DNA of 64,000 nt from Thermoplasmata archaeon (lineage in GTDB: Archaea > Thermoplasmatota > Thermoplasmata > GCA-020350865), in contig CP070751.1 in the NCBI GenBank assembly GCA_020348445.1, positions 64,001 through 128,000 of the forward strand. Reading direction: 5' to 3'. This document shows, in pieces, positions 9,594 through 57,300 of the stretch. Below the pieces are notes generated by a model that saw only the letters and a list, made by a program, of their open reading frames with translations, ran no database searches and was not told the DNA's origin. Each line of letters starts with the position of its first letter. Positions within the stretch are counted from its first letter, which is position 1. A program made the translations under genes and the position numbers.

Positions 9594-12500
9594 TTATAAT
9601 AACTCAGTATCTTCCTCGGAAACATCTTCTTTTACTTCACCTACATCTTGTTCCTCAGATATTGGCTCAGTGATGTCCCCCTCTGTTGTGATCTCCTCTT
9701 TACCTTCCAATGTTTTCAATTCCATTAAGTAGTCGTCTATCCTTTTATCTAAAATCAGAAAATGGTTTTCCTCGATCTTGCCCCTGTGAACGTCCTTTTT
9801 GATGTCATTTCTCAGGATGATTAATTCTTCCTCACAGGTCTTGGGATCATCCTTGTATTCATCGAAGGTGTCTTCTACCCTTTCCATATACCGCCTGAGC
9901 TTACCCCGCTTTCTTCTTATAGTCAGGAACCCAATAAGAAATACTATAATTGAAGCTAGGACCGTTAGGCCAGTAACTATTGGTTCCATGGTCTCCCAGC
10001 TAAATAATCCCTTCTCTTCGGGGGCTTTCTCGGTGATAAATTCAATATTATAATTCTTATCGAGTTTTCTTCCGCCGATTTCTGAAGTGGCATTTGAGTA
10101 AATTGTAATTACATATTTCGTACCGTATTGCAAGTTTGAGTCGGGAATAAATATAATAGATTTACCTTCCTTAGCAAACATCCCATCAATGGAAGGGGAA
10201 ATTGAAAATGCCTTATCGACACTTGTCTTATCCATGGCTTCGGTGAAATAAATAGTAATTCTTGTTTCAACATCCACATTTGTAGAAGCATCTTCTGGAA
10301 CGGTACTTAAGATTTGAACATTTACCGTACTCGGATCTGAAACAGTGGTAAATTCCCAAGATATTGCTGATTCAAGAGGATTACCAGTAATGTCCGTTGC
10401 ACCAGTGCCAATAGTGACATTATATGTGGTACTATAATCCAAATCAGAATTTGGTCTGAATACGAGTTGATTGCCTATCCAACTAGAAGAACCACCAACG
10501 TCAGGAAGAATTGAAAATGCACTTTGAACCGAAGCTTGATTCATTGGCCCATCAAATGATATCGTTATGGTTGTGTTTACGGCCACATTGTTGCCCATTG
10601 GGGACTTATCGATTACCGTTGGCGATGTTATATCCTGTGTAACTGTGATATCGATATCATTTAATCCGCTGGGCTCCGTACTGATCTGGCCACTTACTCC
10701 GTAATATTTAATGTTGGAAGGATCAACTCCATCTTCTGCTTTGATGTAATATTCAAGTCCATCTGTCGTAACTGCAGTCCCTGGAATTTCCGAATAGTAA
10801 GTATCTCCAATTGGATTCATTTGCTGCATAGTGTAGGTTGATTGGGAAGGTTTTTTGTAATACAAAAATACATTTTTCACACCACTTTCATCTGTCACAT
10901 CGACAGTGATATTGATAGGGATGCCAGATGAGCCGCTTGTTACGGGAGAATGGGTAATAGAAGGTGGAGTGGTATCAGGATCTTGTATAGTGATATCTAT
11001 GTCAGTGAGAGGGGTGGGCTCAGTACCAGTTTGGCCACTGTTGCCGTAATATAAAATATTGTTAGCTTTGTCTGATGCCTTTAAATAATATTCAAGTCCT
11101 GCCGAAGTTGCTGCACTCCCAGGAATTTCTGCGGAATAGGTATTTCCATCGGCAGTCATTTGCTGCTCAGTATAAAGTGATTCACCCGGTTTTTTATAGT
11201 ATAAAAACACATTTTTTACACCACTTACATCATCTGTCACACCCGCGGTGACAGCAATCGGTGTTCCTGATGTTCCACTGGTAACAACATTATGAGTGAT
11301 GGAGGGTGGAGTCGTATCATCTGTTATTGTTATATCGATATCATCTGTCGAGGTGGGCTCTATCTCAACTCCGCCAAACGAACCAAAGTATATGGTAATG
11401 GCTGGGTCGGTTTTATCAGTTGCCTTTATGTAATATTCAAGTCCTTCTGTGGTAACCGCGGTTCCAGGTAATTCTACATAGTAGGTATTTCCGATGGCGT
11501 ACATTTGTCGTTCGGTATAAGTTGATTCAGTGGGTTTTTTACAATAGAGATATGCCTTATCTATACCACTATGGGCATCCGTAATAACTGCAGTGAAATT
11601 GATTGGAATACCGGTAGCACCGGTTGTAATAGGTGTATGTGAGATGATTGGAGCGGACGTGTCAATATACACATCGACATATCCTTCAATAAGATTTCCA
11701 GCCGTATCAAAAGCTCTTACTGTTATGTTATGAATTCCATCTTCTTGGGAAGGCAATGTATAGGGGCTTGCTTGGGTATAAAAGGAACCATGGTCTATAC
11801 TTACTTTGTAATATTCAACACTGCTTGTCTCATCCGTGGTTGAGAATGAGATCACAGGTTGGGTATCTGTAGTCCAATTACTTGGAGCTGCTATGGGAAT
11901 GAAAGCATTAGGAGGAGTTATATCAATGTACACCTCCACATATTCATCTCGATAATTTCCAGCTTGATCATAGGCCCTGACCGTTATGTTGTGCGTCCCT
12001 TCGGCCTGGGAAGGTAATGTATAAGGACTCATTCGGGTAGTGAAATCACCAGAGTCTATGCTGATATTGTAATAGTCAATACCGCTGAGATCGTCCGTGG
12101 TGAGAAACTCAATTACAGGTTGGGTATTGGATGTCCAGTTACTTGGATCTGCTGTGGGTGTAAAGGAATTTGGGGGTGTGGAATCAAAGATGTAATAGGA
12201 TGCTTCAGGAGGGGTTGATGGATCGGGTGGCTCCTCGTTCTCGGATATGGCTAACCAGCTGTAATAACCGTCCGCGGGTACGGTCCAGGGGTAGATCCCA
12301 TCGGGTGTATTATCGGTATCCATTAAAGTCCATGAATATGGCGCACTTGTATTGAGTGTGTAGTAAATAGTTACATTCGGTGGGGTTCCACTCATATTGT
12401 ATGATATGTTAATGTCCGCCTCATTCACAGGGCCGCCCACTGGACCCGTGGCCATGGTGTATGGAGCTACAGTGAGGCCTGTGTTCCTGAAGTACTCAAC

Positions 12501-13445
12501 AATAGTTACAGCTCTATCATCCCTGGTATATGAGATGTTGAGCTCAGGCCTATAATAATCTGGGGGGACGTCCATGGATACATCAAAATTCCAATTCAAT
12601 TCCAAGTTTCCATCTGCTGAAATGGGCCCTGGATTCGTTGACAGATTGATACCGTCCGAAAAAGTTATGTCTTGAGGTATTCCGCCTAAATTGAGATCGG
12701 CTTCAATATCAGAAATCGAGTAAGGGGCGTGATTTGTCAGTTGAATCTCGCCATCCTGCCAAGTCTCGCCTGCCTCGAAATCCGGGTGAAAATCTGTCTC
12801 ATCGATATCAGGAAGGTCCTCATGCATATCGGTTTCACCAGGGCTATTATCAGGATCGAATATGGAACTCACATAGATATCGAAATAAAAAGACTCGTCT
12901 GCGATAGAGGTGCCTATCGGCTGTTCCATGTTCTCTAGTAATATCCCAAGAGCATCCTCATACAAGAAATTGACATCTCCGCTGTTACCTATGTCAATTG
13001 TAAACTGGAATGTCTCGGATCCAAATGGGAATATTGTATGACCATCATCCTCATCCATATTAGGAGTGAATAGGGGATGGTATGAAACAAGCGTCGCGTC
13101 GCCAACAAAGATATTATCAGTAGAATCAGTATTTTCAAGTGTTAGCCACACATTTACATCCATGTCTCCAAGATGGTAGGCATTACCGTTCATGCTGTCA
13201 AAGTTGATTTGTATCAATTCATCCCAAGGGGGAATTGCTGGGTCATCCTCCATCCAATTATCTTCCCAACGGGCTAATATATCCCCACCTACATTCTCAT
13301 CAGCCATAGCCCTTAAACCTACCATGGCCACAAACGAGCTCACTGACAAGAAAGCTGCCACGCAAATAACAAATAGTATCCTTTTCACACCCGTCATTCC
13401 TATTCCCCCTATCCATTGTGTAGTCACAACTCCAGTTCCATGCAA
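9594..13445 (-). CDS. Array gene 1: large type I surface protein with an acidic non-propeller head, 2 short Ig-like repeats, 3 ITHTPV domains, 2 Big_5-like domains, TM and conserved cytoplasmic domain
   Basis: 1283-aa ORF with a signal peptide (alternative start ATG 13397). C-terminus FSWETMEPIVTGLTVLASIIVFLIGFLTIRRKRGKL...[19 protein letters not shown] is shared with genes 2-9. Confidence 0.9.
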   Translation of the reverse strand: MHGTGVVTTQWIGGIGMTGVKRILFVICVAAFLSVSSFVAMVGLRAMADENVGGDILARWEDNWMEDDPAIPPWDELIQINFDSMNGNAYHLGDMDVNVWLTLENTDSTDNIFVGDATLVSYHPLFTPNMDEDDGHTIFPFGSETFQFTIDIGNSGDVNFLYEDALGILLENMEQPIGTSIADESFYFDIYVSSIFDPDNSPGETDMHEDLPDIDETDFHPDFEAGETWQDGEIQLTNHAPYSISDIEADLNLGGIPQDITFSDGINLSTNPGPISADGNLELNWNFDVSMDVPPDYYRPELNISYTRDDRAVTIVEYFRNTGLTVAPYTMATGPVGGPVNEADINISYNMSGTPPNVTIYYTLNTSAPYSWTLMDTDNTPDGIYPWTVPADGYYSWLAISENEEPPDPSTPPEASYYIFDSTPPNSFTPTADPSNWTSNTQPVIEFLTTDDLSGIDYYNISIDSGDFTTRMSPYTLPSQAEGTHNITVRAYDQAGNYRDEYVEVYIDITPPNAFIPIAAPSNWTTDTQPVISFSTTDETSSVEYYKVSIDHGSFYTQASPYTLPSQEDGIHNITVRAFDTAGNLIEGYVDVYIDTSAPIISHTPITTGATGIPINFTAVITDAHSGIDKAYLYCKKPTESTYTERQMYAIGNTYYVELPGTAVTTEGLEYYIKATDKTDPAITIYFGSFGGVEIEPTSTDDIDITITDDTTPPSITHNVVTSGTSGTPIAVTAGVTDDVSGVKNVFLYYKKPGESLYTEQQMTADGNTYSAEIPGSAATSAGLEYYLKASDKANNILYYGNSGQTGTEPTPLTDIDITIQDPDTTPPSITHSPVTSGSSGIPINITVDVTDESGVKNVFLYYKKPSQSTYTMQQMNPIGDTYYSEIPGTAVTTDGLEYYIKAEDGVDPSNIKYYGVSGQISTEPSGLNDIDITVTQDITSPTVIDKSPMGNNVAVNTTITISFDGPMNQASVQSAFSILPDVGGSSSWIGNQLVFRPNSDLDYSTTYNVTIGTGATDITGNPLESAISWEFTTVSDPSTVNVQILSTVPEDASTNVDVETRITIYFTEAMDKTSVDKAFSISPSIDGMFAKEGKSIIFIPDSNLQYGTKYVITIYSNATSEIGGRKLDKNYNIEFITEKAPEEKGLFSWETMEPIVTGLTVLASIIVFLIGFLTIRRKRGKLRRYMERVEDTFDEYKDDPKTCEEELIILRNDIKKDVHRGKIEENHFLILDKRIDDYLMELKTLEGKEEITTEGDITEPISEEQDVGEVKEDVSEEDTELL

Positions 13446-13482
13446 TAGGCCACCTCCTGGAATTGGACCAGGTATTTGAATA

Positions 13483-13510
13483 ATATATGGATATATAAGT
13501 TTATCTTTTT
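13483..13510 (-). promoter_or_regulatory. Array promoter copy 1 (BRE/TATA-like, most divergent copy)
   Basis: Minus strand AAAAAGATAAACTTATATATCCATATAT, upstream of a GGAGGTG RBS. Confidence 0.65.
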
Positions 13511-13534
13511 ATCTGGTCTTGGTCTCCCTCAATC

Positions 13535-16500
13535 CTATTCAAATCCCCCACCAAGATCTTCTTCCTCTGAAATTGACTCCTCGGAAACTGGCTCTGTAAT
13601 GTCCTCCTCCAACACCTCCCCTGCCTCCTCTTTTTCCATGGTTTTCAAATCCAATAAGTAGTCGTCTATCCTTTTATCCAATATCAGGAAGTGATTTTCC
13701 TCGATCTTTCCCTTCCTAACATCGACTTTAATGTCTTCCCTAAGAGCAATTAGCTCCTGCTCACAAGCTTGTGGGTCCTTTTTGTATTCGTTGAATGTAT
13801 CTTCTATTCTATCTATATGCTTCTTGAGCTTACCACGCTTTCTTCTTATGGAAAGAAATCCAATCAAGAATACGATAATAGAGGCTAGAACTGTTGCTCC
13901 GGTGATTATGGGTTCCCAAACATCCCAAAAGGATTCCTTATCCTGAACCGCGTCAGCTTCTTTTTCTGTTTGGAATGCTTGATTAAATTCAGTCTCAAGG
14001 TCAATGTTAGCCAAATCTTTCGCACTTGTAGAAATTGTTACAGTATACTCGGTATCATAACTCAAGGGAATATCAGGCTTGAATTTTAAAGTGATCCCAG
14101 CCATTTCAACCCATTCGAATTTACCCTCTACATGCGGGGTGATTGAAAAAGCACTCTGTGTAACATTCATAATCATAGTTTCACTAAATGTAATTGTGAT
14201 AATCGAATCAATAGGCACATCAGAACCATCTGGTGACATATCTAATACCTTGGGAGGTATTGTATCTCTTTCCTGGATTAATATATCGATATCATCTAAA
14301 GTTGATGGTGCTGTTAGAACTCGTCCATTTTTACCGAAGTATATAGTGTTAGATGGTAACGAATTATCTACCGCTTTTATATAGTATTCAATAAAATCTG
14401 TGTCAACTGTTGCAGCAGATATTTCAGCGGAATAGATATTTTCTTGAAGGGTCATTTGAATTGGTGTATATACGACTTCGTTTTGTTTTTTAAAGAAGAG
14501 AGTTACACTTGCAACCCCACTATTTTCGTCAGTAACTGTTGCAGCAATTATTATTGATGTTCCTTTGAGTCCGCTTGTAACAGGTGTATGAGTAATCACA
14601 GGTGGAGTTGTATCAATATATACAACAATGTCTTCTTCGATAAAATTACCAACATTATCGAATGCCCGTATGGTTATATTATGAATGCCATTATCTTGAT
14701 GGGGTAATGTGTACGGACTTGTTTGGATCGAAAAACTTTCACCATCAATACTAATTTCATAATGAGCAATATCGCTAAGATCATCTGTTGTCGAAAATGA
14801 TATTTGTGGTTGGGTATTGGAAGTCCAACCCTCAGAACTAGTGGTAGGAGTAAAACTCTCCGGGCCTGTAGTGTCAATATAGACGAATACATATCCTTCA
14901 ATGTAATTTCCAGCTTTGTCAAATGCCCGGACGGTTATGTTATGGATGCCATCATCTTGTGAAGGTAATATATATGGACTTGTTTGGATTGAAAAACTCT
15001 CACCGTCAATGCTTATCTCATAATGATCTATACCGCTAACAACATCCGTTGTTTCGAATGTAATTGTAGGTTGTGTATTATCGGTCCAGCTACTAGGATT
15101 TGCTATAACAGTTAATGGAGAATCAGGAGGCGAGCTGTCATAATATAAATATGTGGTGTTGTAGCTAGTATAATCTTTATTGTTTATGTCGTCTACCAAC
15201 CATATAAATATTTCATTCGAGCTTTCCAAAGGAACTGGAATACCCATGAGGGAATTTATCCCAGGGTTAGTAATCAATGTTCCATCGGTATTGGATGTAG
15301 GTGGAGAGTTGAACCTATAGTAAGCTCCTGCAATACCCGTTAAATCACTTGGATTCGTCCAGGATATATCGAATGAATTTGTGTTAATCCAATTGCTTGG
15401 TGTTACAGAAACTCCAATAGGGGAATCTGGGGCTGTTGCATCGTAGTAAAGATATGTTGTTGTGTAATTCAAATAATTGACATTACCCGCCTCATCGATT
15501 AACCAGACATAAATTGTATGATTGCCATCACCTGTAACTGTGATACCATTTAAGGAAGTAACGTTTGAACCGGCAACGTATGTCCCATCGGTGTCTGAGG
15601 TCGGAGCAGAATCTAACTTGTAATACGCGCCAGTAATACCTGCCGTATCACTTGGATTGGTCCATGAAATATCGAATGAATTTGTATTATTCCAAGTTGC
15701 AGGATTCGCTGTAAGACCTATGGGTGGATCAGGGTCTGAATTATCATACAATAGATAAATTATCGAGTGATTATTATAATCTTTATTGTCTAAGTTATCG
15801 TTTAACCAGACATAGATAGTATGATTGCCTTCACCACTGACAATGATATTATCAATATATGTGATATCCACACCAGCGACATAAGTGCCATCCGTATCGG
15901 AGGTGGGTGCCGATTTCAATTTATAAAATGCCCCAGCTATTCCCGAGAATTCGCTAGGATTAGTCCATGATACCGTAAATGAATTCGTAGATGTCCAATC
16001 ACCAGGTGTAGCTTTCAAATTTATTGGCGAAGAAGGTGCAAGACCATCATAGAATAGAATTGTTGAACTGTAAGTAGTAAAATTCACATTATTTGCATTA
16101 TCTTTTAACCAGATATAAATCGTATGCACACCTGAATCCAAAACAGATATACCGCTTATGTTGTTTATTTCCTGACCCTGGACGTATATACCATCATCAT
16201 TGGATGTTGGCGCAGAATACAATTTGTAATAAACTCCCGCAATACCCGCGTCATCGACTGGGTTAGTCCAAGATACATTGAACGAATTCATATTAGTCCA
16301 ACTGCTGGGAATTGCAGAAACACCAATCGGGGAATCCGGGTCCGTTGTGTCATAATGAAGATATGTTGTTGTGTAATTCAAATAATTGACATTGCCGGCT
16401 TCATCTTTTAACCAGACGTAAATTGTATGATTGCCATCACCTATAACAGAGATATTACCTAAGAAAGTAATGTCCGAACCTACCACAAATATCCCGTCAG

Positions 16501-19500
16501 TATCTGAAGTCGGAGGAGAGTCTAGCCTGTAATATACACCAGCTATCCCTGAGGCATCGATTGGATTGGTCCATGAAATATTAAACGAATTCCTTGAATT
16601 CCAGGTGCTCGGTTCTGCAGAAATTCCACCAGGTGGATCCGGTGCGGTTATATCTATTCCTAGAGTTTGGTAGGAGCTGTACGCACTCCAATTTCCATCA
16701 GAGTCCTTTGTGCGGACTTTCCAGAACCAAAAACCCTCAGCCATTGTAGTGTATCCTGTACCTGAAGGGAACTGCCAAAATTCGTTTGATGAACTTTGTT
16801 CACCGCTGTTATAATCTAGGCTTGTAAAACTGCTGTCATTATCGATCACAACTTGAAATTCTGTCTGGGTGCTGTCGGAATCGTTAAAACTCCAGCTGAA
16901 ATATGGGGTAGTATCGTTTGTCATAAAATTATCGGTAGGATTTAATGAACCGGGCGGGCCAGGTATTAAATTAAAATGTATGGTCAAATTATGTAAAACT
17001 GGTGTAATACTTGTGTTGCTCGTGTTTAGATAGGCTTCATATTGGAACCATTGTTCTCCGTGATGCCCCGACCAGATATTTGTTCCGGATGTTGTGTAAA
17101 AAGTGGAAGGTGTTCCATCGGGCCCTACAAAGTTCTTAACCGATAAACCGCCTTGTGTAGTCGCAGATCTTAATTGGAATTTAATTTCTGTATTTGCGGG
17201 TACGGTCGCATTCCAGTTAATTGTCCGCCACGAAACCTCTCCTCCAGTATTATATGGCTCTGACACCAATGTACCTAATGAAAAATACTGTTGATACGAT
17301 AAATTTATGTTCCTTAGAATAGGCGTGTCTATTCCATCAGAATAGAAATTGACATGGTAGTAAAATCTAGAACCATTCCATCCTAAAGTAGTGAGGTCAA
17401 TGAGATTTGTACCTCCGGATATAGTATCCCAACCATTTATAGAACCGGAAGAATTATACCAGTTAAAAGAGTCTTTTGAAAATTGCACTTTAATACCTGT
17501 TCCAAAGGGCTTGACTACTTCACATGTAAAATTATTAATCGAATATATCTTACTATCGGTAAGTATATTATTAGAAATTATCTCACCCCAAGATGAATCG
17601 TCTTTAACCAGCCAGATATTGGGTTTACCTGGAACACCGATCCCATAAGAGTACGTATCACCAACGATGATATATCCTCCATTAGGGGTCTGCTGAACTT
17701 CTTTACCCCATCCACCCCAGAAGAATTTAAACCATTTCTCATTCCCTAAAGAATCGGTTTTGATAGAATCAATAGTGCCTGTAATTATAAAACCTCCATC
17801 GAATGTCTGCTGGACAGAATACCCCCTATCATTACCACTCCCGCCGAAGGTTTTATTCCATTGCTCATTACCGAAAGAATCTGTCTTAATCAGCCATACA
17901 TCCCAACCTCCAGCACCATAAGTGTTTGTTTCTCCAGCTATGATATATCCTTCATCGGTAGTCTGTTGTACTGAATAACTGTAATCAGGGTCAGATGCAC
18001 CGCCGAAAGTCTTATTCCATATCTCATCTCCATTATTATCAGTTTTAATCAACCATACATCTCCGCCTATATATCCCGCTATTATAAAGCCGCCATCAGT
18101 GGTCTGTTGAACTGAATATCCCCTATCAGCAAAATTAACACCGAAGGTTTTGTTCCACTGTTCATTGCCTGACGAATCAGTCTTGATCAACCAGACATTA
18201 TAATTACTTGCACCAAAAGACATTGTACCACCAGCAAGGATAAAGCCATCATCAGAAGTCTGCTGTACTGAATACCCATAATCATGTTGGGGTCCACCGA
18301 AAGTTTTTTCCCAATGCTTATTACCTGAGGAGTCGGTCCTAATCAGCCAGACATCATAATTACTCCCACCAAAAGGCCATCTATACCCAACAATAATATA
18401 ACCGCCATCAGAGGTTTGTTGAACCGATTGACCACTACCACCCACTAATGAACCGAGGGTTTTGTTCCATTGCTCATTTCCTAACGAATCGGTCTTTATC
18501 AGCCATGCATCAGAAGTACCTACACTAAAAGAAGACGTGTCCCCAGTGATAATAAAGCCGCCATCAAAGGTCTGTTGGACTGAATAACCATATTCATAAC
18601 TAGCCCCACCGAAGGATTTACTCCATGACTCGACATCGGACGAATCTGTCTTAATCAGATATGCATCAGTTCCTCCCGCACCGTAAGAATATGTATACCC
18701 GGCAATAATATATCCTCCGTCAAAGGTTTGTTGGACTGAATAGGTATATTCACCTGAACTCCCACCGAAGATTTTATTCCATACCTCATTGCCTAATGAA
18801 TCGGTTTTGATCAGCCAAGCATCATAACCATCACCAAAGGAGCTTGTATAACCTGCAATGACATACCCCCCATCAGAAGTTTCTTGGACTGAATAACCTT
18901 GGTCCCAACCATTTCCGCCAATTGAATTATTCCATTGCTCGTTACCTGACGAATCTGTTTTAATTAACATTACATCCCTATGGCCGAGACTAAATAAATA
19001 AGTATAACCAGCTATGATAAATCCACCATCGGAGGTCTGCTGGAGGGATTCACCATAACTATAATCACCTACATTGAAGGTCTTATTCCATATCTCAGTT
19101 CCTAAAGAATCGGTCTTGATTAACCAGGCGGTCCAATTACCAACAGAACCATAAGATCGTGTAGTTCCAGCGATGATAAAGCCACCATCAGGGGTTTCCA
19201 GTACTGCTCGACCATGATCCCGGTCATCCCCACCAAAGGTTCTATTCCATTGCTCTATGCCGGTTTCGTTCGTTTTAATCAGCCAGGCATCCCAACTGCC
19301 TGCACCCCAAGAGCCGATATCTCCTGTAATGATATACCCACCATCGGAAGTTTCCTGAACTGCCTCACCATAATCAATGGAACTCCCGCCGAAGGTTTTA
19401 TTCCAAAGCTCATTACCTGATGAATCGGTCTTGATTAGCCATGCATCCCAATTGCTACCAACACCATAAGATTGTGTACTCCCAGCGATGATAAATCCGC

Positions 19501-21124: not shown

Positions 21125-21160
21125 ATATACCCCCCCGTTTTGTATAATTCCTGAAATTAA

Positions 21161-21191
21161 GATAGAATATGGATATTTAAGTTTATCTTTT
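21161..21191 (-). promoter_or_regulatory. Array promoter copy 2
   Basis: Plus strand gatagaatatggatatttaagtttatctttt. Confidence 0.75.
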
Positions 21192-21216
21192 TATCTGACC
21201 CTGGCCTCCCTCAATC

Positions 21217-39720: not shown

Positions 39721-39758
39721 ATTAGTCCCCTCCGTGACTGTATAAATCTTGTAATTAA

Positions 39759-44319: not shown

Positions 44320-44358
44320 AAGAAGCCCCCTCCGTGTTATTGTAAATCTTATGGATAA

Positions 44359-44389
44359 GATATAATATGGCTATTTAAAATTATCTTTT
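44359..44389 (-). promoter_or_regulatory. Array promoter copy 6
   Basis: Plus strand gatataatatggctatttaaaattatctttt. Confidence 0.8.
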
Positions 44390-44413
44390 GTCTGGCCCCG
44401 GTCCCATTAAATC

Positions 44414-47400: not shown

Positions 47401-49855
47401 TTGGTGGGGAATCCAGTTTATAATAGGCTCCTGCTATTCCCGATAGATCTGTAGGATCAGCCCATGTTACTTCAAAGAAATTGGTAGATGTCCAAGTTAA
47501 AGGATCTGCCCTAATTTCATCCGGTGACAAGACAGTAGTATCTATTGTAAAAGACCAATTGAGGCTGTACGGGCTCCAATCCCCATCATCATCCCTTGTG
47601 CGGACTTTCCAGAACCAGATTCCATCGGTTATTTCAGTGTAACCAGTATTTATTGGAAACTGCCAGAATTCATCTGTGGAGCTCTGCTGACCGCTGTCGT
47701 AGTCCACACTACCAAAGTTATAGTCATCATCAATTAAAACCTGAAATCCATCTTGAAATCCATCCGAATCGGAAAATTGCCACCTGAACATGGGCGTACT
47801 ATCGTTTGTGATTAAGTCGGCTGGGGGAGTATTTAAATTTGGTGCATCTGGAATAAAATTGTAAAATATTGTTACATCCTCTAAAATGGGTGAAACACTT
47901 GCATCTATGGTATCTAAATATACCTTGTATTGAATCCATGAGTCAAAATCATGACCAGACCATATATCGGTTCCCGAGAACTCATAATAAGTTGATGCGC
48001 TTCCGCCGGGGCCCACAAAATCAATTGTGCTGTCACTATTCAATTGAAATTTGATATTTGTATTAAGAGGTTCAAAAGCGGTCCAAGTTATAGTTTTCCA
48101 TTTAACATCCGAGGCAAGATTTAATTGTTGTGATTCCAACGATCCAGAATATAAATATTGACTGTATGAGAGAGCAATATTTTGAACAACTGGAGAGCTA
48201 ATATTATCTGAAGAAAAATTCATTTGGTAGTAGAATTCACCTCCTTGCCAAGCCAAATATGCTAGATCAATGAAATTAAAACCATCAGATAAAATATCCC
48301 AACCATTCAATGTCCCGCTGGAATTATACCAATTTATTGAATCCTGGGAAAATTGCATTTTGATTTCTGTTTCGGGTAATACCGAGGCAGTACATGTAAA
48401 GTTATTGATTGAGTGAGCTCTTTGGCCTGAAAGCAAATTTACTGAGGTTATTTCACCATAAAAGAAGGGCACACAACCAGTTTCATTGGTTTTAATCAAC
48501 CATACATCAGAATCGGGATCACCAAAAGAATATGTGCTTCCAGTGAGGATAAAGCCCTTATCAGAAGTTACTTGGATTGAATAACAAGTATCTGTGCTAC
48601 CCCCGCCAAAGGTCTTGTTCCATTTCTCATTTCCAGAAGAATCTGTTTTAATTAGCCAAACATCATCGCCTCCCATACCATAAGATTGTGTATGCCCAGC
48701 GATGATAAAGCCACCATCTGGTGTCTCCCGGACTGAATAACCCCTATCTGATCTATCCCCGCCAAAGGTCTTGCTCCATTCCTCAATTCCAGAAGAGTCT
48801 GTTTTAATTAGCCGAACATCATAGTGTCCAGTAAACCATGAATATCCGGTGATGATAAAGCCACCGTCGGATGTTTCCTGGACTGATCGACCAAAATCAC
48901 TATTACTCCCACCAAAAGTTCTATTCCATTGCTCATTACCTATAGAATCTGTTTTAATCAGCCATACATCATCGTTTCCAGCACCAAAGGATTCTGTATC
49001 TCCTGCGATAATAAAACCACTGTCGGATGTCTCCTGAACTGATATACCATAATCCCCTTGACTTCCGCCAAACGTTTTATTCCATTCCTCAGAACCAGAG
49101 CTATCGGTCTTTATCAGCCATGCATCAGTGCCTCCAGCTCCCCAAGAATACGTATGTCCCGCAATGATAAAGCCGCCGTCGGATGTCTCCTGGACTGATG
49201 TACCTAAATCAGTATTAATCCCGCCGAAGCGCTTTTTCCATTTCTCAACACCAGAGCTGTCGGCATTTATTAAAATTCCTTGAACATCACCTGCTTCCAT
49301 ATTCCCAGTGATGATATAGCCGCCAGTAGATATCTCCTGGACTGATGAATCCCCATATGCAAATACAACTCCGGTGAAAGTGTTATTCCACTCCTCAAAG
49401 CCAGAGCTGTCGGTTTTTATTAACCATCCCGCTGATCCAGTTTCATACGTCGACCCAGCGATTATAAAGCCGCCATCAGAAGTTTCCTGGACTGAATATC
49501 CATGATCATCCCAACCAGCAAGCCTATCAAAGGTTTTGTTAAATTTTAAAAGCCTTGCATCCCCTGAAACATTATCGACGAATATATTATTTATATAACT
49601 GATTTTGGATTCGTTTATAAAATTATCTTCGATTATTTTATCCATTAATTTGAGAGTGACATTACCTTCACTTGTAACTGTCACATTGGTCAATATTCCT
49701 GTATTGAAATCAGCCTCCGTCGTCTGCACCCAACTCGAACCTGCAGATGCATTATCCACAAATGGCCCATCAAAAGGCATTACTTGAATTGCAGTCAATA
49801 TCAGCAATATCCCTAGAGACACTCGAAATACTCGTCTTACCTTTCGCCCACACAT
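44414..49855 (-). CDS. Array gene 7: 1813-aa surface protein; 7-blade head, 6 long and 1 short Ig-like repeats, TM, conserved tail
   Basis: ORF track plus hand count of repeats. Confidence 0.92.
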   Translation of the reverse strand: MCGRKVRRVFRVSLGILLILTAIQVMPFDGPFVDNASAGSSWVQTTEADFNTGILTNVTVTSEGNVTLKLMDKIIEDNFINESKISYINNIFVDNVSGDARLLKFNKTFDRLAGWDDHGYSVQETSDGGFIIAGSTYETGSAGWLIKTDSSGFEEWNNTFTGVVFAYGDSSVQEISTGGYIITGNMEAGDVQGILINADSSGVEKWKKRFGGINTDLGTSVQETSDGGFIIAGHTYSWGAGGTDAWLIKTDSSGSEEWNKTFGGSQGDYGISVQETSDSGFIIAGDTESFGAGNDDVWLIKTDSIGNEQWNRTFGGSNSDFGRSVQETSDGGFIITGYSWFTGHYDVRLIKTDSSGIEEWSKTFGGDRSDRGYSVRETPDGGFIIAGHTQSYGMGGDDVWLIKTDSSGNEKWNKTFGGGSTDTCYSIQVTSDKGFILTGSTYSFGDPDSDVWLIKTNETGCVPFFYGEITSVNLLSGQRAHSINNFTCTASVLPETEIKMQFSQDSINWYNSSGTLNGWDILSDGFNFIDLAYLAWQGGEFYYQMNFSSDNISSPVVQNIALSYSQYLYSGSLESQQLNLASDVKWKTITWTAFEPLNTNIKFQLNSDSTIDFVGPGGSASTYYEFSGTDIWSGHDFDSWIQYKVYLDTIDASVSPILEDVTIFYNFIPDAPNLNTPPADLITNDSTPMFRWQFSDSDGFQDGFQVLIDDDYNFGSVDYDSGQQSSTDEFWQFPINTGYTEITDGIWFWKVRTRDDDGDWSPYSLNWSFTIDTTVLSPDEIRADPLTWTSTNFFEVTWADPTDLSGIAGAYYKLDSPPTSNTDGTYVPGAVNSISSITVSGDGEHTIYIWLKDVVNNVDYTNYNTTILYYDSIPPSSPIDITAVPSSWTNDDNFDIYWTNPFDTSGIAGAYMKLDSPPTSNTDFDLSHSDPGINSIGAISVNTEGAHQIYIWLEDNASNTDYSTYNETTLYYDATAPSSPLDVTANPSSWTSTNLFDVLWTNPADLSGIAGAFYKLDNPPTSDTDGTYVAGGGITSLNDITVSGDGAHTIYIWLKDNASNTDYTTYSTTVLYYDSTAPSTPTDVMGAPDTWAPTNSFDVTWTDPSELSGIAGTYYKLDSPPTSDTDGTYVPGSGVSSIEDITVTGEGQHTIYIWLVDLAGNTNHTTYNSTFLYYDSTAPSLPIGIAADPSTWTPTNSFTVTWTNPVDDSGIMGAYYKLDSPPTSNTDGTYVLNPGISSISDITVSGDGQHTIYVWLKDDGGNVDYNNHNSVIVYYDGSAPTEPTGMTINPSTWTYTNSFTIDWTEPFDDSGIKTGVYYYIGNSPPSSQSDGTWTSEKPFTITNAPEGATNIYLWLEDNVGNKNYLNYGIGIMQLDTNSPSSFTPVADYASWTSNSNFNITFSTTDATSGIDHYEVKIGTGGFSTQSSPYLFPPQIDGIHNITVRAFDEAGNYIDGYVDIYIDTDPPTITHTPVTSGTIGDPINITATVTDDGSGVENVILYYKKPTETSYAQIHMTANGNVYSADIPGTVVTSEGIEYYIEVKDKANPPNILYFSTPGSTNTEPDSSNDIDITITGADSIYPSVVDYSPEGSNVPLDTTISVAFSKPMDQDSVESAFTISPTVGGVYEWIGATLTFTPSSPLKAVTQYNVTISIQAKDLEGRALQKYHNWSFITGGEAEKETSFWETWEPIITGVTILFSLLLFLVGFLSLRKKRSKLRQYLERVDDTYNKYKENYQECEQELIALREDIKAEVKEGKLEENHFLILDKKIDDYIMEMKSLEKEEAGIGLEEDITEPVSESVSEEEDIGGGFE
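45734..47542 (-). repeat. 6 x ~100-aa Ig/FN3-like stalk repeats (gene 7)
   Basis: Same unit as gene 2 (GIAGAYYKLDSPPTSxTDG). Confidence 0.85.
48476..49540 (-). repeat. 7 x blade repeats (gene 7)
   Basis: Same consensus, counted by hand. Confidence 0.88.
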
Positions 49856-49893
49856 GTTGGCCCCCTCCGAGTTACTGTAAATTTAATTGATTA

Positions 49894-49922
49894 GATATAA
49901 TATGGATATTTAAAATTATCTT
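49894..49922 (-). promoter_or_regulatory. Array promoter copy 7
   Basis: Plus strand gatataatatggatatttaaaattatctt. Confidence 0.8.
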
Positions 49923-49948
49923 CCTTTAAGACTAACTCCTCTTCTTCC

Positions 49949-52900
49949 CTATTCAAATCCCCCGCCAATATCTTCATCCTCGGAAACAGGCTCTGTAATG
50001 TCCGCTTCCAACACTGCCCCTGCTTCCTCTTTTTCCAGGGCTTTCATTTCCATTAGATAATCATCGATCTTCTTATCCAGAATTAGGAAGTGGTTTTCCT
50101 CGAGCTTGCCTTCCTTTACCTCGGCTTTAATGTCCTCCCTAAGAGCGATCAGTTCTTGCTCGCATTCTTGAGGATCCTTTTTATATTTATTGAATGTATC
50201 ATCTATTCTTTCAATATACTGTCGGAGTTTGCTGCGTTTCTTTCTTATAGTTAGGAACCCAATAAGAAATATAATAATTGAAGCTAGGACCGTTAGACCA
50301 GTGACTATTGGTTCCAAGTTTTCCCAGCTAAATAATCCTTTCTCTTCGGGCGCTTTTTCGGTAATAAACGACCAAGTGTGGTTACGCTCAAGACCAATAC
50401 CATCTAAATTCTTCGCTCGTGTGGAGATACTCACATTATATAAGGTTTCATATGCTAATGGAGAGCTAGGAGTAAACTCGAGAGTATGCCCACGCCAAGT
50501 GAATACCCCCTTTACACTTGGAGTTATTGAAAACGCCTGTTCAGTTTCACCCTTTATCATTTCCTCACTAAATGAAACTTCTATGGTCGTACTGACCTTA
50601 ACATCAGTACCTATTGGCGACCAAGACAAATCTACAACATTTGGGTGAGTTATACCGTTAGCTTGGGTTGTTGTAATAAATTGCCAATTGTATTCACGGG
50701 TCATATTATTACCAGCTAAATCCGTCGCATTTCTTGAAATACTCAACTCGTAGATAGTACCAACTGATAAGGGTGAACTAGGTGTAAAAGTTAGAACTGA
50801 TATCCCTTGCCATGAAAATACTCCAGATGTAGTTGGAGAAATCGAAAATGAATCTTCCACTGAGGTTCTATTCATTTCTTCACTAAATACGATGGTAATT
50901 GTTGTATCTATAGGGACATCAGAGCCTTCTGGGGAATAATCAAGTATTGTTGGCGGCCATGTATCATCTTCTGTTATGGTAATACCGATATCAGTTGAAG
51001 GAACAGGCTGTGTATCAGTTTGTCCACTTCCGCCATAATAAGCGATATTGTTCGCTTTATCCACTGCTTTTATGTAGTAATCGATACCATCCAAAGTAAC
51101 TGCACTTCCTGGTATTTCACCAGAGTATGTATTTCCATTGGCAGTCATTTGCTGTTCTGTGTATGACGGATCACTGGATTTTTTATAATACAAAAATGCA
51201 TATTCTACACCACTACCATCATCTGTCACACCTGCAGAAATAATAATTGGGGTGCCTGATGTACCACTGGTAACTGGTGTATGGGTAATTACGGGTAAGC
51301 TCGTGTCATCTGCTACTGTAATATCGATGTCATTTGATGAGATAGGCTCAATATCAATTGGGCCAAAAGCACCATAATATATGATATTGGGTGAATCGGC
51401 ATTGTCAACTGCTTTGATATAATATTCAAGTCCGTCTGTGGTAATGGCAGTTCCAGGTATTTCTACAAAGTAAGTATTTCCATCGGCGCTCATTTGCTGC
51501 TGGGTGTAGGTCGTTTCAATGGGTTTTTTAATGTACAGAAATACATCTTGGATACCGCTATCATCATCCACAACCTCTGCTGTGATATTAATTGGCACAC
51601 CTATAATACCACTGATAACAGGTGTATGGGTGATAGAAGAGGGAGTGGTATCAATATAAACATCTACATAACTTTCATAATAATTTGCAGCTTCATCGTA
51701 AGCTCTTACTGTGATGTTATGGACCCCGTCAGTCTGAGAAGGTATTGTATATGGGCTAGTCTGGGTAGAAAAACCACCACTATCGATCTTTACCTCATAG
51801 CGATTAACACCTGTGGTTACATCTGTAGTAGAGAATGTAATTACTGGTTGGGTATTGCTCGTCCAGCCGCTTGGATCAGCTGTGGGTGTAAAACTGACTG
51901 GAGGCGTGGCATCTATTGTGATGTTCCAGTAGATACTATAAGGTCCCCAGTCACCATCACTGTCTTTTGTCCTTACTTTCCAATACCAGTTACCGTCAGC
52001 AATTGGGAGGATTGGTGTGTACGATGGAGTTCCTGAAGTCCTCTCCCCGCTATTATAATTAACACTACCAAATCCGCTATCATCGTCTATTAGAACCTGA
52101 AAGCCACCGTGAGTGCTGTCTGTATCAAAAAAATTCCAAGTAAACACAGGTTTACTATTGTTTGTGAGAGTATCGTCTGCGGGACTTAACAATTGAGGTT
52201 CTAATGGAATATAATTATAAAATATTGTTATCTCTTCTAAAACAGGTGTATAACTTGTATCTGTGGTTTCTAGATATACCTTGTATTGAATCCACTGGTC
52301 AGAATCATGGACAAACAAGATATCGGTCCCAGGGATTTCATAATAACTTGCGGGAGTTCCGTCAGGACCTAAAAAATCGCCTCCTGAGCTTTGGCTTTTC
52401 AATTGAAATTTGATACTTGTGTTAGTAGGTTCTGCGCCGGTCCAACTTATAGTTGTCCAGTTTACACCATTACCTGCATCAAAAACCTGTGATATTAAAT
52501 TGCCTTCAGATAAGTATTTTGTGAATGAAACATTAATACCATGAACACTTGGAGCGTCTATAGTATCAGATGTAAAGTTCAATTTGTAATAAAAGTGAGA
52601 ACCTAGCCAACTCAAGGATGATAAGTTTATTAAATTCATACCATCATTTAGTAAATCCCATTCATTTTCCGATCCACTAGAATTATACCAATTAATATTA
52701 TTTTGGGAAAATTGTACCTTTATTTTGGTCTTGGATGGTATCGATGTATTACAAGTGAAATTGTTTATCAAATTAGCTTCTTCATCTACAATTAAATTTC
52801 TTGAGGTCAATTCACCGTAATAAAAGGGCACATAACCAGTATCATTGGTTTTAATAAGCCAGACATCAGAGCCTCCGGCACCGTAAGAGGATGTGCCCCC

Positions 52901-54223
52901 GGTGATAATAAAACCGCCATCAGAGGTCTCCCGAACCTCTTGACCATTATCACCTAAACTCCCACCAAATGTTCTATTCCACTGTTCAATTCCCGAAGAA
53001 TTGATTTTAATGAGCCATAAATCTGAGCTTCCAACACTGTAAGAGTTTGTTTTTCCAGTAACGATAAAACCACCATCAGATGTTTCTTGGACTGAATATC
53101 CCCGGTCATCATCGCTTCCACCGAAGCTCTCATTCCACAGTTCATTTCCGGAAGAATCGGTTTTAATTAGCCAGGCATTATAATTATTAGCACCAAAAGA
53201 GTTCGTATATCCTGTCATAATATAGCCGCCATCCGAAGTCTCTTGAACTGAATAACCATAGTCCGATCCTTCCCCACCGAGGGTCTTGTTCCACACCTCA
53301 GAACCTAATCCACTGACTTTTATCACCCATGCATCAGCTTTTCCTGCACCCCAAGATGATGTAGATCCAGTTATAATATAGCCTTTATCCGATGTTACCT
53401 GAACCTCCTGACCGACATCTCCAAAACTCCCGCCGAAGGTCCTATTCCACTTTAAATCACCTCCAGAATCTGTTTTAATCAACCACGCATCATTATTTCC
53501 TGCACCCCAAGATGCTGTTTGCCCGGCGATGATATAACCGCCATCGGGAGTCTGTTGGACTGAGTTTCCAACATCTCCTAAACTCCCGCCGTAGTTATTG
53601 CTCCATTCTTCAACACCAGTGTCATTGGTCTTTATCAGCCATACATCACCATCAGGACTAATAGAGTATGTAACTCCAGTAATGATAAAGCCGCCATCAG
53701 AGGTTTCTTGAACTGATCTGCCTTCATCCTCATCCCACCCTCCACCGAAGGTCGTATTCCACTCCTCATCACCCGTGCTATTGGTTTTTATCAGCCATAC
53801 ATCATAGCCACCGTAAGATAGTGTATACCCCGTGATGATATAACCTCCGTCTGATGTCTGGTTGATAGAATATCCCACATCCTCATCAACCCCACCGAAG
53901 GTCTGATTAATTTTTTTAAGTTTTATTTCACCTAATATGGTATTTATATCTAAGTTCAATTTTTCCTCGATATAATAACAATCGAAGAAATCGTCTTTTA
54001 TATAATTTGCTTGTAAATTAAGTTTCAACTCACCCGTTGATGTAACATTCAAGTCAGTCAATGTCCCGTTATTAAAATCCTGGGCAGTCGTCTGCATCCA
54101 GCTCGAACTAGCAGAAGCGTTCTTGACAAGCGGCTCATCAAAAGGTATCACCTGAAATAAGGACAATATTAGCAATACACCTATGAACCATCGAAATACT
54201 CGTCTTACCTTACGCCCACACAT
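49949..54223 (-). CDS. Array gene 8: 1424-aa surface protein; 7-blade head, 1 short Ig-like repeat, 2 ITHTPV and 2 Big_5-like domains, TM, conserved tail
   Basis: ORF track plus hand count of repeats. Confidence 0.92.
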   Translation of the reverse strand: MCGRKVRRVFRWFIGVLLILSLFQVIPFDEPLVKNASASSSWMQTTAQDFNNGTLTDLNVTSTGELKLNLQANYIKDDFFDCYYIEEKLNLDINTILGEIKLKKINQTFGGVDEDVGYSINQTSDGGYIITGYTLSYGGYDVWLIKTNSTGDEEWNTTFGGGWDEDEGRSVQETSDGGFIITGVTYSISPDGDVWLIKTNDTGVEEWSNNYGGSLGDVGNSVQQTPDGGYIIAGQTASWGAGNNDAWLIKTDSGGDLKWNRTFGGSFGDVGQEVQVTSDKGYIITGSTSSWGAGKADAWVIKVSGLGSEVWNKTLGGEGSDYGYSVQETSDGGYIMTGYTNSFGANNYNAWLIKTDSSGNELWNESFGGSDDDRGYSVQETSDGGFIVTGKTNSYSVGSSDLWLIKINSSGIEQWNRTFGGSLGDNGQEVRETSDGGFIITGGTSSYGAGGSDVWLIKTNDTGYVPFYYGELTSRNLIVDEEANLINNFTCNTSIPSKTKIKVQFSQNNINWYNSSGSENEWDLLNDGMNLINLSSLSWLGSHFYYKLNFTSDTIDAPSVHGINVSFTKYLSEGNLISQVFDAGNGVNWTTISWTGAEPTNTSIKFQLKSQSSGGDFLGPDGTPASYYEIPGTDILFVHDSDQWIQYKVYLETTDTSYTPVLEEITIFYNYIPLEPQLLSPADDTLTNNSKPVFTWNFFDTDSTHGGFQVLIDDDSGFGSVNYNSGERTSGTPSYTPILPIADGNWYWKVRTKDSDGDWGPYSIYWNITIDATPPVSFTPTADPSGWTSNTQPVITFSTTDVTTGVNRYEVKIDSGGFSTQTSPYTIPSQTDGVHNITVRAYDEAANYYESYVDVYIDTTPSSITHTPVISGIIGVPINITAEVVDDDSGIQDVFLYIKKPIETTYTQQQMSADGNTYFVEIPGTAITTDGLEYYIKAVDNADSPNIIYYGAFGPIDIEPISSNDIDITVADDTSLPVITHTPVTSGTSGTPIIISAGVTDDGSGVEYAFLYYKKSSDPSYTEQQMTANGNTYSGEIPGSAVTLDGIDYYIKAVDKANNIAYYGGSGQTDTQPVPSTDIGITITEDDTWPPTILDYSPEGSDVPIDTTITIVFSEEMNRTSVEDSFSISPTTSGVFSWQGISVLTFTPSSPLSVGTIYELSISRNATDLAGNNMTREYNWQFITTTQANGITHPNVVDLSWSPIGTDVKVSTTIEVSFSEEMIKGETEQAFSITPSVKGVFTWRGHTLEFTPSSPLAYETLYNVSISTRAKNLDGIGLERNHTWSFITEKAPEEKGLFSWENLEPIVTGLTVLASIIIFLIGFLTIRKKRSKLRQYIERIDDTFNKYKKDPQECEQELIALREDIKAEVKEGKLEENHFLILDKKIDDYLMEMKALEKEEAGAVLEADITEPVSEDEDIGGGFE
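52835..53908 (-). repeat. 7 x blade repeats (gene 8)
   Basis: Same consensus, counted by hand. Confidence 0.9.
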
Positions 54224-54262
54224 TAGAAGCCCCCTCCGTGTTATTGTAAATCTTATGGATAA

Positions 54263-54291
54263 GATATAATATGGCTATTTAAAATTATCTT
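54263..54291 (-). promoter_or_regulatory. Array promoter copy 8
   Basis: Plus strand gatataatatggctatttaaaattatctt. Confidence 0.8.
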
Positions 54292-54317
54292 CCTTTAAGG
54301 ATGGCTACTCTTCTACC

Positions 54318-57300
54318 TTATTCAAATCCCCCGCTAACCTCTTCTTCCTCAGAAACCGGTTCAGTGATATCCTCCTCTGGAACAGCCTCTGCCTCTCCTT
54401 TTTCCATGACCTTTATTTCTAGTAAAAAGTCGTCAATCTTTTTATCCAAAATCAGAAAGTGGTTTTCCTCGATTTTACCCCTGTGAACGTCCTTTTTAAT
54501 GTCCTCTCTCAGGAGGATTAACTCCTCCTTACAGGTCTTGGGATCTTCCTTGTACTCGTCGAAGGTGTCTTCTATCCTTTCCATATACTGTTTGAGCTTG
54601 CCCCGCTTTTTTCTTACGGCAAGGAATCCAATCAAGAACACAATAATAGATGCTAAAACTGTTACGCCAGTAATAATTGGCTCCCACGTCTCCCAAAACG
54701 GTTTTGCTGCCTCTTCGGGTCGTTTCTCAGTATAGAAACTACTCACATATTCCTCTTCCATATGTTGTCCATTCTCATTTGTGGCATCTATAGATATTGT
54801 AAGGGTATACTTTGTATCGTAATCAAGAGGTTCGCGGGGTTTAAGAACAAGATAGTCTTCTGAACCCCATTGGGGAATAAGTTCAATATATGGCTCGATG
54901 GTGATAGCACCCTCAGTTGTATCTGGATCCATATCTTGAGTGAACTTGATTTCGATTTGGATTCCAACACCAACATCCAACTCATTCTTTTCTGGATCTA
55001 TTGTCTCTACTTCCGGCCCTGTTCCAGGTTCCGGGATAGTGGTAAACTCCCATGATGTCACTGTCCCCAGGGGATTACCAAATAAGTCCTTAGCACCCGT
55101 TCCAATGGTTACATTGTAGGTAGTAAAATAAGCAAGGTCTGAATCAGGATCGAATTTTAAAGTGTTTCCATTCCAACTAAAGGCGCCAAAAACAGATGGT
55201 AAAATCGTAAATGCACTTTGCGTTAATAATTGATTCATTGGTTCACTGAATGTGACTGTTATGTTTGTGGTTACAGCCACATTTGTACCTGTCGGGGTCT
55301 TGCCCGTAATCGATGGAGGAATTATATCCTGGGTTATTTCGATATCGATGTCATTTGATCCAGTGGGTTCTGTGGTAGTCTGGCCACTGGTGCCGTAGTA
55401 GATAATATTAGGGATTTGATCAGAGGCACTGATATAATATTCAAGTCCATCTGAAGTAACTGCTGCTCCAGGGATTTCCACTGAATATGTATCTCCGGTG
55501 TCGGCATTCATTTGCAGCGCAATATAGCTTGAATCGCTCGGTTTTTTATAATAAAGTATTACCTCATCTAAGCCACTTCCAACATCTTCAACAATTGCCT
55601 CGATTTCAATAGGCTCCCCAACTTCACCACTGGTTACAGGAGTGTGGGTTATGGAAGGCAATCCAGTATCGATATAGATGTCTCTATAACCTTCAACATA
55701 ATTTCCAGCTTTGTCGTATGCTCTTACTGTGATGTTATGAATCCCATCGGTCTGAGCCGGTATTGTGTACGGGCTTGTTTGAGTTGAAAAAGCTCCTGAG
55801 TCTATCTTTACCTCATAACGATCAATTGAACTGGTCTTATCTGTTGTAGAGAAATAAATATTAAACTGAGTTTCTGAGGTCCAGGTATCATAATCGGCAG
55901 TGGGAGTAAAACTGTAAGGGGGTGTCGAATCTATCACAAATGTCCAATAGGTGCTGTAGTCTCCCCAATCAAGAACATCATTTTGAGTGCGAACTCTCCA
56001 GTACCAGGTTCCATCATCTATATCGCCTGTGATTTGCCAATGTTCATTACTAGAGGTCTGAAGATCACTATCATAGATTATATCTGAGAAAGTGTCGGCA
56101 TCACTGATTTGAACCTGAAAACCGATTTGGGAACCGATTATATCGTTAAATCTCCAACTGAACTCAGGTGTTGTATCACTTAACAAAGAACCATCGGAAG
56201 GACTGATCAAGTCAGGTGGATATGCGAGAGTGAAGTTATAAAAAATTGTTACATCCTCCAATAAGGGTGTTAAGCTTCTGTCTGCTGTTCTTAAAAATAC
56301 TCTGAACTGCATCCATTGGTCACCATTATGGCCCGGATATATCTCCTCTCCAGGTGATGTATAATACGTATCAGAGGTTCCTCCCCTACCTATATAATTT
56401 ACTAAATCTAATCCCGATTCATCAGAGGCTGTTCGAAGTTGAAATTGAAAATCCAAACCAGAAACTGTTGTTCCGTTCCACTTAATAGCTACCCATCTAA
56501 CAGGTGCAGTGGCATCAAATGATTGCGATTCAAATACGCCTAAATAGTAATATTGACTGAAAGAGAAGTTAATGTTTTGAACACTTGGGGCAGTATCACC
56601 GTACCATTGGAATATCATCCTGTAGTAGAAGTTACCTTGTGTAAAATCCAAGGATGATAGATCAATGGAATTAAAGCCATCGTTTAACAATTGCCCACCA
56701 TCCCAATTATTTAAATCTTCAGAAAATTCAATATATATGCTTCCACTGCCAGAGGTGGGGATTGATACAGTACACTCAAAGGTAGTTAATGAAACCACTT
56801 CTTGACCTTCAAGTAAATTACTTGATATCAATTCACCGTATGTAAATTCAAGATTACCTAAAGAATCGGTTTTTAACAGCCAGACATCTTCAGCACCTGC
56901 GCCATATGAATCTGTAGTACCTGTAATTATATAACCGAAATCAGACGTCTCTGATACTGAGTAACCGTAATCATCCCTGCCTCCACCAAAAGTCTTATTC
57001 CATATCTCACTGCCTGTAGAGTCAGTTTTGATCAACCATAAATCCTCCAAGCCAGAGCCGAAAGATTTGGTCAAACCAGCAATCACAAAATCTCCATCAT
57101 TTGTTATAACAACTGATTGACCTCTATCATCATCAATGCCTCCAAAGGTCTTTTTCCATTCTTCAGATCCGTTGATATCTGTTTTAATCAACCATACATC
57201 GTAATTACCAGCACCATAGGATTTTGTACGGCCAGTGATTATAAAACCACGATCCGAAGTTTCACGAACAGAAGTACCCGCATCAGAATCGGATGAAAAT

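Follow-up and report, generated by a model that had tools for sequence, protein, structure and literature searches.

The DNA examined here is a stretch of 64,000 nucleotides from a Thermoplasmata archaeon (assembly GCA_020348445.1, contig CP070751.1, positions 64,001 to 128,000 of the forward strand), which we call the window. It belongs to a single-contig genome of 5.16 Mb, and nine minus-strand open reading frames (ORFs), spaced 76-135 bp apart, fill the region from 9594 to 58265. The nine encoded proteins have a common architecture, consisting of an N-terminal hydrophobic leader, a long ectodomain with Ig-like Big_5, Big_13 or Big_3 domains (Pfam), one C-terminal transmembrane (TM) helix, an R/K-K-K-R patch, a core of ~73 amino acids (aa) and an acidic end. 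From the positive-inside rule we infer a type I single-pass topology, with the core and the acidic end forming a cytoplasmic tail. An earlier description made from the letters alone (the sequence-only reading) had proposed this tail as a conserved helical bundle that might serve for oligomerisation or docking. We found that the conserved block is longer than first described: it begins at an extracellular W-x-x-W-E-P-I-(I/V)-T motif and takes in the TM helix (68% identity), so that outer motif, TM helix and cytoplasmic tail together make an anchor cassette of ~115 aa. The nine genes and their cassettes, all on the minus strand, are as follows.

Gene 1: ORF 9594-13445; cassette 9597-9998, with a W-x-x-M-E-P-I-V-T motif and TM helix at 9918-9998, core 9699-9917 (KKDVHRG), acidic end 9597-9698 with net charge -14; fold assigned by analogy with gene 9.
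Gene 2: ORF 13535-21124; cassette 13538-13927, motif and TM helix 13847-13927, core 13628-13846 (VDVRKG), acidic end 13538-13627 with GGFE terminus.
Gene 3: ORF 21217-27909; cassette 21220-21597, motif and TM helix 21517-21597, core 21298-21516 (ADVRKG), acidic end 21220-21297 with GGFE terminus.
Gene 4: ORF 27986-31624; cassette 27989-28363, motif and TM helix 28283-28363, core 28064-28282 (AEVKEG), acidic end 27989-28063.
Gene 5: ORF 31759-39720; cassette 31762-32181, motif and TM helix 32101-32181, core 31882-32100 (KKDVHRG), acidic end 31762-31881.
Gene 6: ORF 39856-44319; cassette 39859-40278, motif and TM helix 40198-40278, core 39979-40197 (KKDVHRG), acidic end 39859-39978.
Gene 7: ORF 44414-49855; cassette 44417-44803, motif and TM helix 44723-44803, core 44504-44722 (AEVKEG), acidic end 44417-44503 with GGFE terminus.
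Gene 8: ORF 49949-54223; cassette 49952-50326, motif and TM helix 50246-50326, core 50027-50245 (AEVKEG), acidic end 49952-50026 with GGFE terminus.
Gene 9: ORF 54318-58265; cassette 54321-54695 (modelled with AlphaFold2), motif and TM helix 54615-54695, core 54396-54614 (KKDVHRG), acidic end 54321-54395 with GGFE terminus.

The tail consensus of the sequence-only reading agreed with the MAFFT consensus of the window tails, and its three subtypes were exact: KKDVHRG in genes 1, 5, 6 and 9, (A/V)DVRKG in genes 2 and 3, and AEVKEG in genes 4, 7 and 8. Its conserved Cys is present in the core, and its GGFE terminus was recovered in five of the nine (genes 2, 3, 7, 8 and 9). The acidic-tail motif that it gave was found as ITEP(V/I/M)S in eight tails, gene 3 having MTEPIS instead. 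As it had also stated, the tail is better conserved than the ectodomains, with a mean pairwise identity of 73% against 46-48%; the figure for the N-terminal 120 aa is 51%. Net charge in the nine genes ranges from -2 to +3 for the core and from -9 to -16 for the acidic end. Outside the window genome the ITEP...GGFE motif is absent, and its place is taken by a variable charged stretch, a second module or a zinc ribbon. Within the window subfamily the TM helix keeps small or polar residues at positions 4, 7, 10/11 and 18 after the Glu of the EPI motif; among 39 representatives conservation is 100% for W(-4), E0, P1, T4 and S/T11, 90% for T7 and 97% for G18. Such positions have the spacing of a putative helix-packing face. 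The outer motif and this TM stripe are limited to the window subfamily, which makes up 39 of the 150 listed representatives.

The similarity of tandem paralogues can arise from selection or from recent gene conversion, the second of which the sequence-only reading had set against its own proposal. We performed Nei-Gojobori counts on codon alignments of the nine genes, using the proportions of nonsynonymous (pN) and synonymous (pS) differences, since dS is unreliable at near-saturation.

Tail core: pN 0.146, pS 0.705.
Membrane-proximal ectodomain: pN 0.370, pS 0.694.
Next ectodomain segment: pN 0.359, pS 0.729.

Silent sites are equally near saturation in the three segments and replacements are 2.5-fold rarer in the tail, indicating purifying selection; the codon counts thus argue that tail conservation is not the product of recent conversion. 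Some conversion is nevertheless not absent. For TM helix plus tail the median nucleotide identity is 72% and the median longest identical run 15 nucleotides (nt), and the longest runs reach 62 nt between genes 2 and 3 (spanning the core and the start of the acidic end), 38 nt between genes 4 and 8 and 35 nt between genes 5 and 6; pairs with identical runs have lower pS. The trees also differ by segment. The tail tree groups {1, 9, 5, 6}, {2, 3} and {4, 8, 7}, the membrane-proximal ectodomain tree pairs (2,5), (3,6) and (1,9), and the tree of the farther-out ectodomain pairs (1,8) and (4,9) and places gene 7 with an unlinked gene encoding 3418 aa at genome position 694478-704734. Because these well-supported pairings disagree, the nine paralogues are mosaics, and their mosaicism points to a repeated swapping of ectodomain cassettes on a constant anchor, as far as the trees can tell.

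To describe the fold of the tail, we used an AlphaFold2 model of gene 9 from the outer motif to the C-terminus (54321-54701, 127 aa; 72-row alignment; model m50521541f38c). The mean predicted local distance difference test score (pLDDT) was 84.9, with values of 92-97 in ten-residue blocks over three helices.

Helix 1, model residues 3-49: TM helix running unbroken into the first cytoplasmic helix.
Helix 2, model residues 54-73.
Helix 3, model residues 79-105.
Acidic end, model residues after 105: pLDDT 54-67, predicted disordered.

In the model a helix-Gly-helix hairpin packs on helix 1, making a predicted bundle directly beneath the membrane. The small helical bundle of the sequence-only reading is therefore borne out as an ordered three-helix bundle, and the alternative that the domain is disordered fails. 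In the family alignment, positions that are at least 70% hydrophobic fall on one face of helix 1, one face of helix 2 and a broader face of helix 3, which is the pattern of a self-contained bundle. The best-kept positions among 149 family sequences are L33 (97%), G47 (91%), L57 (91%), I61 (86%) and C29 (84%), and the conserved charged positions are D16 (84%), E30 (80%), E51 (77%) and E67 (74%). The Cys sits within the hydrophobic stripe along helix 2, and other members have Y, L or G in its place; it therefore looks like a core residue rather than a reactive one, and a reactive or metal-binding Cys was set aside as the leading idea. A model of a natural two-copy protein of Woesearchaeota type gave a pLDDT of 86, with helix 3 of copy 1 continuing into helix 1 of copy 2, and the unit is therefore self-contained. 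Altogether, the predicted structures show that the tail is a genuine domain that folds on its own, on the cytoplasmic side next to the membrane.

Searches of the PDB gave no specific structural relative for this fold. Foldseek against the PDB returned nothing with E below 0.3 for the tail model. The wide VIA-align search gave a best Z of 9.7 for the single domain (CorA cytosolic domain, BAG, YlaN and designed bundles) and 8.8 for the two-copy model, both within the chance range for helical proteins. When the profile was compared with PDB sequences, the best matches were de novo designed four-helix proteins (E 9e-4 to 0.07), which we read as a probable effect of amphipathic-helix composition and not as homology. 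No usable match came from the ESM Atlas.

We built a profile from the 16 cores of the window genome and searched 1.84 billion proteins with it. At E<=1e-3 it matched 565 representative clusters, 241 of them at E<=1e-10, which is far above chance. The 16 ORFs with the domain in the window genome comprise the nine in the window, two close relatives and five distant ones elsewhere, with distant paralogues at 1.19-1.20 Mb; all encode large proteins in which the domain directly follows a C-terminal TM helix. A hydrophobic helix likewise lies immediately upstream of the domain in 124 of 146 testable relatives. The window genome has no soluble protein with the domain (module 1) or with the second module described below (module 2); there is one other weak module 2 match, in an ORF that was not checked for TM helices. 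Among 300 genomes sampled from the class the domain was found only in the window's own genus, and a 400-genome sample of the phylum gave 30 genomes with it (31 of 401 when the window genome is counted; 24 of 162 genera), often with the copies in tandem arrays. It also occurs in several Thermoplasmatota classes and, beyond these, in metagenome-assembled genomes (MAGs) of Hydrothermarchaeales and of DPANN archaea, with Hydrothermarchaeales, Nanoarchaeota and Woesearchaeota among the named cluster members. Other relatives come from MAGs labelled as uncultured Thermoplasmata or as 'Methanomassiliicoccales archaeon'. Named members carry either a hypothetical annotation or a name that refers to another part of the protein. 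On the window tails, Pfam gave only sub-threshold helical noise (TM_ErbB1, HAUS1, DUF1664) and NCBIfam no match. The survey of N-terminal fusions that the sequence-only reading had called for yielded Big_5, PKD, Kelch propeller, beta-helix, TSP3, TPR, peptidase C11, 3-keto-disaccharide hydrolase and CBM96 domains as ectodomains, showing that in several archaeal phyla this cytoplasmic domain is combined with many ectodomains that are unrelated to one another.

The region behind the domain varies in these relatives. A CxxC...CxxC zinc ribbon is appended in ~10 of the 150 best relatives (P0085, P0103, P0121, P0051 and others), and in several it is recognised as Pfam Zn_Ribbon_1 or DZR. Some relatives have two to five copies of the domain in series, and in P0001 (5694 aa), P0002 (2844 aa) and the ORF at G319:C3:209092-210090 three to five tandem units, each consisting of the three-helix domain and a SHOCT_2-like module, stand behind a single TM helix. 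Such tandem units are predicted to form a long cytoplasmic rod. A second module follows the domain in the five distant paralogues and in at least 38 of the 150 listed relatives, with the pattern L-P-x(10)-M-L-x-D-G-x-I-S-x-x-E-Y. Its matches to SHOCT, SHOCT_2 and DUF1707 are weak to borderline; at best it scores 24.5 bits, where the PF20612 cut-off is 24, and the matches to DUF1707 are weak (E 0.004-0.018, in the distant paralogues).

The second module bears on the proposal of the sequence-only reading that the GKIEENHF segment resembles SHOCT motifs. SHOCT is a short two-helix unit in which a Gly and a Glu at G+6, just before an aromatic residue, are strongly conserved (Eberhardt et al. 2013, PMC3581485). 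GKIEENHF covers the Gly turn, with G47 between helices 2 and 3 in the model, and the beginning of helix 3. Our comparison was made via the SHOCT_2-like module 2. With hhalign, modules 1 and 2 matched over 27 columns around the Gly in exact register (probability 63%, P 7e-5, score 24.9), while 150 column shuffles scored 9.0 on average (standard deviation 2.1, maximum 16.1) and the reversed profile 8.5. This profile match supports relatedness or convergence of the two modules, and the hairpin and the SHOCT_2-type module found behind it in many relatives probably share an origin. The likeness thus found support at the profile level, but membership in SHOCT did not: Pfam gave no SHOCT-type match at E up to 1-10, either with the window tails or with L010 and L011, and the residue at G+6 is H (43%), N (19%), S (15%) or T (9%), the family having its Glu at G+4 instead (77%). 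Judged from these profiles, the domain falls outside SHOCT proper and is better called SHOCT-like, with an extra helix at its N-terminal side.

Based on these results, we propose that the conserved block is a reusable membrane-anchor and assembly cassette, and not a ligand-specific signalling domain. We hold this reading tentatively, at a probability of roughly 45%. The cassette would set the type I topology of the surface protein; the TM stripe and the rigidly attached bundle would pack surface proteins together or onto a membrane component that they share; and the acidic end would present a polyanionic stretch to the cytoplasm. We favour general anchoring and assembly because the domain appears to have the same role behind binding domains and enzymes, and because it has neither a dedicated neighbour gene nor a soluble counterpart. 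Apart from paralogues, no recurrent neighbour family was found in 28 loci of 11 genomes (449 ORFs, at BLAST sensitivity and with crude ORF calls). The proposed role would agree with Ravi et al. (2024, PMC11237479), who predict that membrane-associated complexes are assembled by bihelical domains of the SHOCT-like kind. Several points weigh against it. In the single published experimental test of a canonical SHOCT domain, oligomerisation was not supported (PMC3581485). The modelled monomer satisfies its own hydrophobic faces, and the cytoplasmic domain may therefore have no need to self-associate; the structure models themselves rest on shallow alignments (66-72 rows). The argument from the TM stripe is one of pattern. 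Finally, 73 conserved residues, charged positions among them, are more than simple anchoring would call for; the conserved charges may instead form a surface for a partner encoded elsewhere.

The last of these points leads to the other role named by the sequence-only reading, a docking site. Here the cassette would belong to a receptor-like system, in which a cytoplasmic partner would bind to the bundle surface, to the acidic ITEP...GGFE end or to both, so that events at the ectodomain are relayed inward. Such a role would account for the several charged positions conserved across the family, and it draws on the ITEP(V/I)SEE motif and the GGFE end kept among the nine, as well as on the zinc ribbons added behind the domain in ~10 of the 150 listed relatives. 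However, ITEP and GGFE are restricted to the window genome and other genomes have variable charged ends; the domain is placed behind enzymes and binding domains alike; and neither a recurrent neighbour gene in the 28 loci nor a soluble module 1 or module 2 protein in the window genome presents itself as the partner. We therefore consider docking possible but unlikely.

It is more doubtful still that the domain acts as an inner-leaflet binder, with the SHOCT-like hairpin lying on the cytoplasmic membrane face and stiffening or tilting the anchor. Anchoring of proteins at the inner leaflet has been predicted for SHOCT-like domains (Ravi et al. 2024, PMC11237479), and both the juxtamembrane position and the basic patch at the start of the domain would suit this. 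But the TM helix already provides anchoring, the charges of the core and of the acidic end suit anionic archaeal lipids poorly, the conserved hydrophobic faces are buried within the predicted bundle, and tandem copies are predicted as a rod pointing off the membrane.

Regulated intramembrane proteolysis was considered in view of two genes near the array. The gene at 2733-4733 (plus strand), ~5 kb from the array, is the only presenilin/signal peptide peptidase-type protease gene of the genome (PF06550); its product carries a ~320-aa FG-GAP/BBS2-like propeller inserted between profile positions 84 and 90. A subtilase gene lies at 1-1596. In this scheme the subtilase would shed the ectodomain and the presenilin homologue would then cut the conserved TM helix, releasing the bundle with its acidic end. 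The unusually conserved TM helix and the type I single-pass topology, as deduced from the positive-inside rule, are consistent with it, and in a genome of the same genus (G049) PF06550 again lies ~7 kb from a tail gene. However, the linkage is lost in another genome of the genus (G029; nearest tail gene at 127 kb) as well as in G425 (100 kb), G319 and G346 (different contigs), and the presenilin homologue is a single gene in all five other genomes searched, making co-occurrence uninformative. The presenilin linkage is not kept outside the genus, the gene being near a tail gene only in the window genome and G049 and not in the four others. We regard such cleavage as very improbable, and give equally little credence to the analogy in which the TM-plus-tail cassette would be an archaeal counterpart of a Notch/APP-type receptor stub, with the bundle and its acidic end as the intracellular signal after cleavage. 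Least of all can we accept that the tail has no function of its own and is alike by concerted evolution among tandem paralogues, since its pS matches that of the ectodomain (0.69) at a 2.5-fold lower pN and the domain is conserved in unlinked genes, other classes and other phyla, despite the short identical runs in pairs 2-3, 4-8 and 5-6, the lower tail pS (0.41-0.49) in pairs 1-9, 2-3 and 5-6 and the disagreement of tail and ectodomain trees.

Around the cassettes, the array showed further regularities. Upstream of every one of the nine genes stands a separate copy of a near-invariant block, AAAGATAA-(A/T)(C/T)-TTAAATA-(T/G)-CCATATT, which looks like a putative transcription factor B recognition element plus TATA box. 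The blocks are located on the minus strand at 13446-13540, 21125-21222, 27910-27991, 31625-31764, 39721-39861, 44320-44419, 49856-49954, 54224-54323 and 58266-58379, and a GGAGGGG ribosome-binding site stands between the promoter-like block and the start codon in array genes. With such a block for every gene, the paralogues look separately but similarly transcribed. The N-terminus of gene 1 (13397-13445) is unlike that of the other eight, having a TTG start, a different leader and no M-C-G-R-K-x-R-R-V-F-R opening; its true start may be an ATG 16 codons downstream of the TTG. Beyond gene 9 lie two further minus-strand genes, one encoding a 174-aa membrane protein with a long E/K-rich end (58374-58898) and the other a PKD-rich giant of >1655 aa (59032-63999), whose tail after the TM helix is rich in Pro, Lys and Ala. 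Different tail types therefore stand side by side. The sequencing runs that contain this DNA are sediment metagenomes (DNA runs only; no RNA run listed).

The cytoplasmic ends of archaeal surface proteins that are anchored by a C-terminal TM helix are usually regarded as trivial. The window-type tail contrasts with this view, being a folded module of ~73 aa that is under strong purifying selection and found in hundreds of clusters. It represents a widespread, unannotated family of SHOCT-like juxtamembrane domains that no Pfam or NCBIfam model covers, and defining the family would improve the annotation of many giant archaeal proteins. With this family, the SHOCT-like class, itself poorly understood, gains a three-helix form that adjoins the membrane. 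The TM stripe, the bundle and the acidic end offer a handle on how archaea organise their surface coat from inside, although the present value of these results is mainly descriptive.

Four known systems invite comparison. The sorting signals of archaeosortases and exosortases (PGF-CTERM and similar) share with the cassette a tripartite layout, in which a short conserved motif (EPI(I/V)T in the cassette) precedes a TM helix and a basic cluster (RKKR in the cassette), but they stop a few residues after the basic cluster, whereas the nine window genes continue for 98-113 residues that include a folded domain. An archaeosortase-type C-terminal sorting signal was ruled out on this ground, together with the lack of any NCBIfam sorting-signal match. 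SHOCT and SHOCT_2 (PF09851, PF20612) are alike in being two-helix units of ~30 aa with a near-invariant turn Gly, I/L at G+2, an aromatic residue at G+7 and then a pattern of hydrophobic and basic residues; they too are found near the C-terminus, on the cytoplasmic side and in many unrelated architectures. The window tail differs from them in that its hairpin is preceded by a further conserved helix, an unbroken extension of the TM helix, making a three-helix domain of 73 aa instead of a 30-aa motif. Similarly, the DUF1707-type SHOCT-like domains are divergent bihelical SHOCT relatives predicted at the inner membrane face, but these belong mostly to soluble bacterial proteins without a TM helix (PMC11237479), whereas the window tail is archaeal and fused to a type I TM anchor. 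Spectrin-type repeats, finally, are three-helix bundles whose tandem copies are joined by a continuous helix, as predicted here. Two units superposed on spectrin or plectin with Z 8.2-8.7 over 145-153 residues, at a root-mean-square deviation of 5-8 A, where helical models reach ~13 by common arrangement; the window-type unit has 70 aa against ~106 and no Pfam spectrin match. The likeness is thus best taken as analogy and not homology. By this analogy it is conceivable, though very improbable, that single and tandem copies (up to five) make up a spectrin-like sub-membrane skeleton that ties the surface proteins together.

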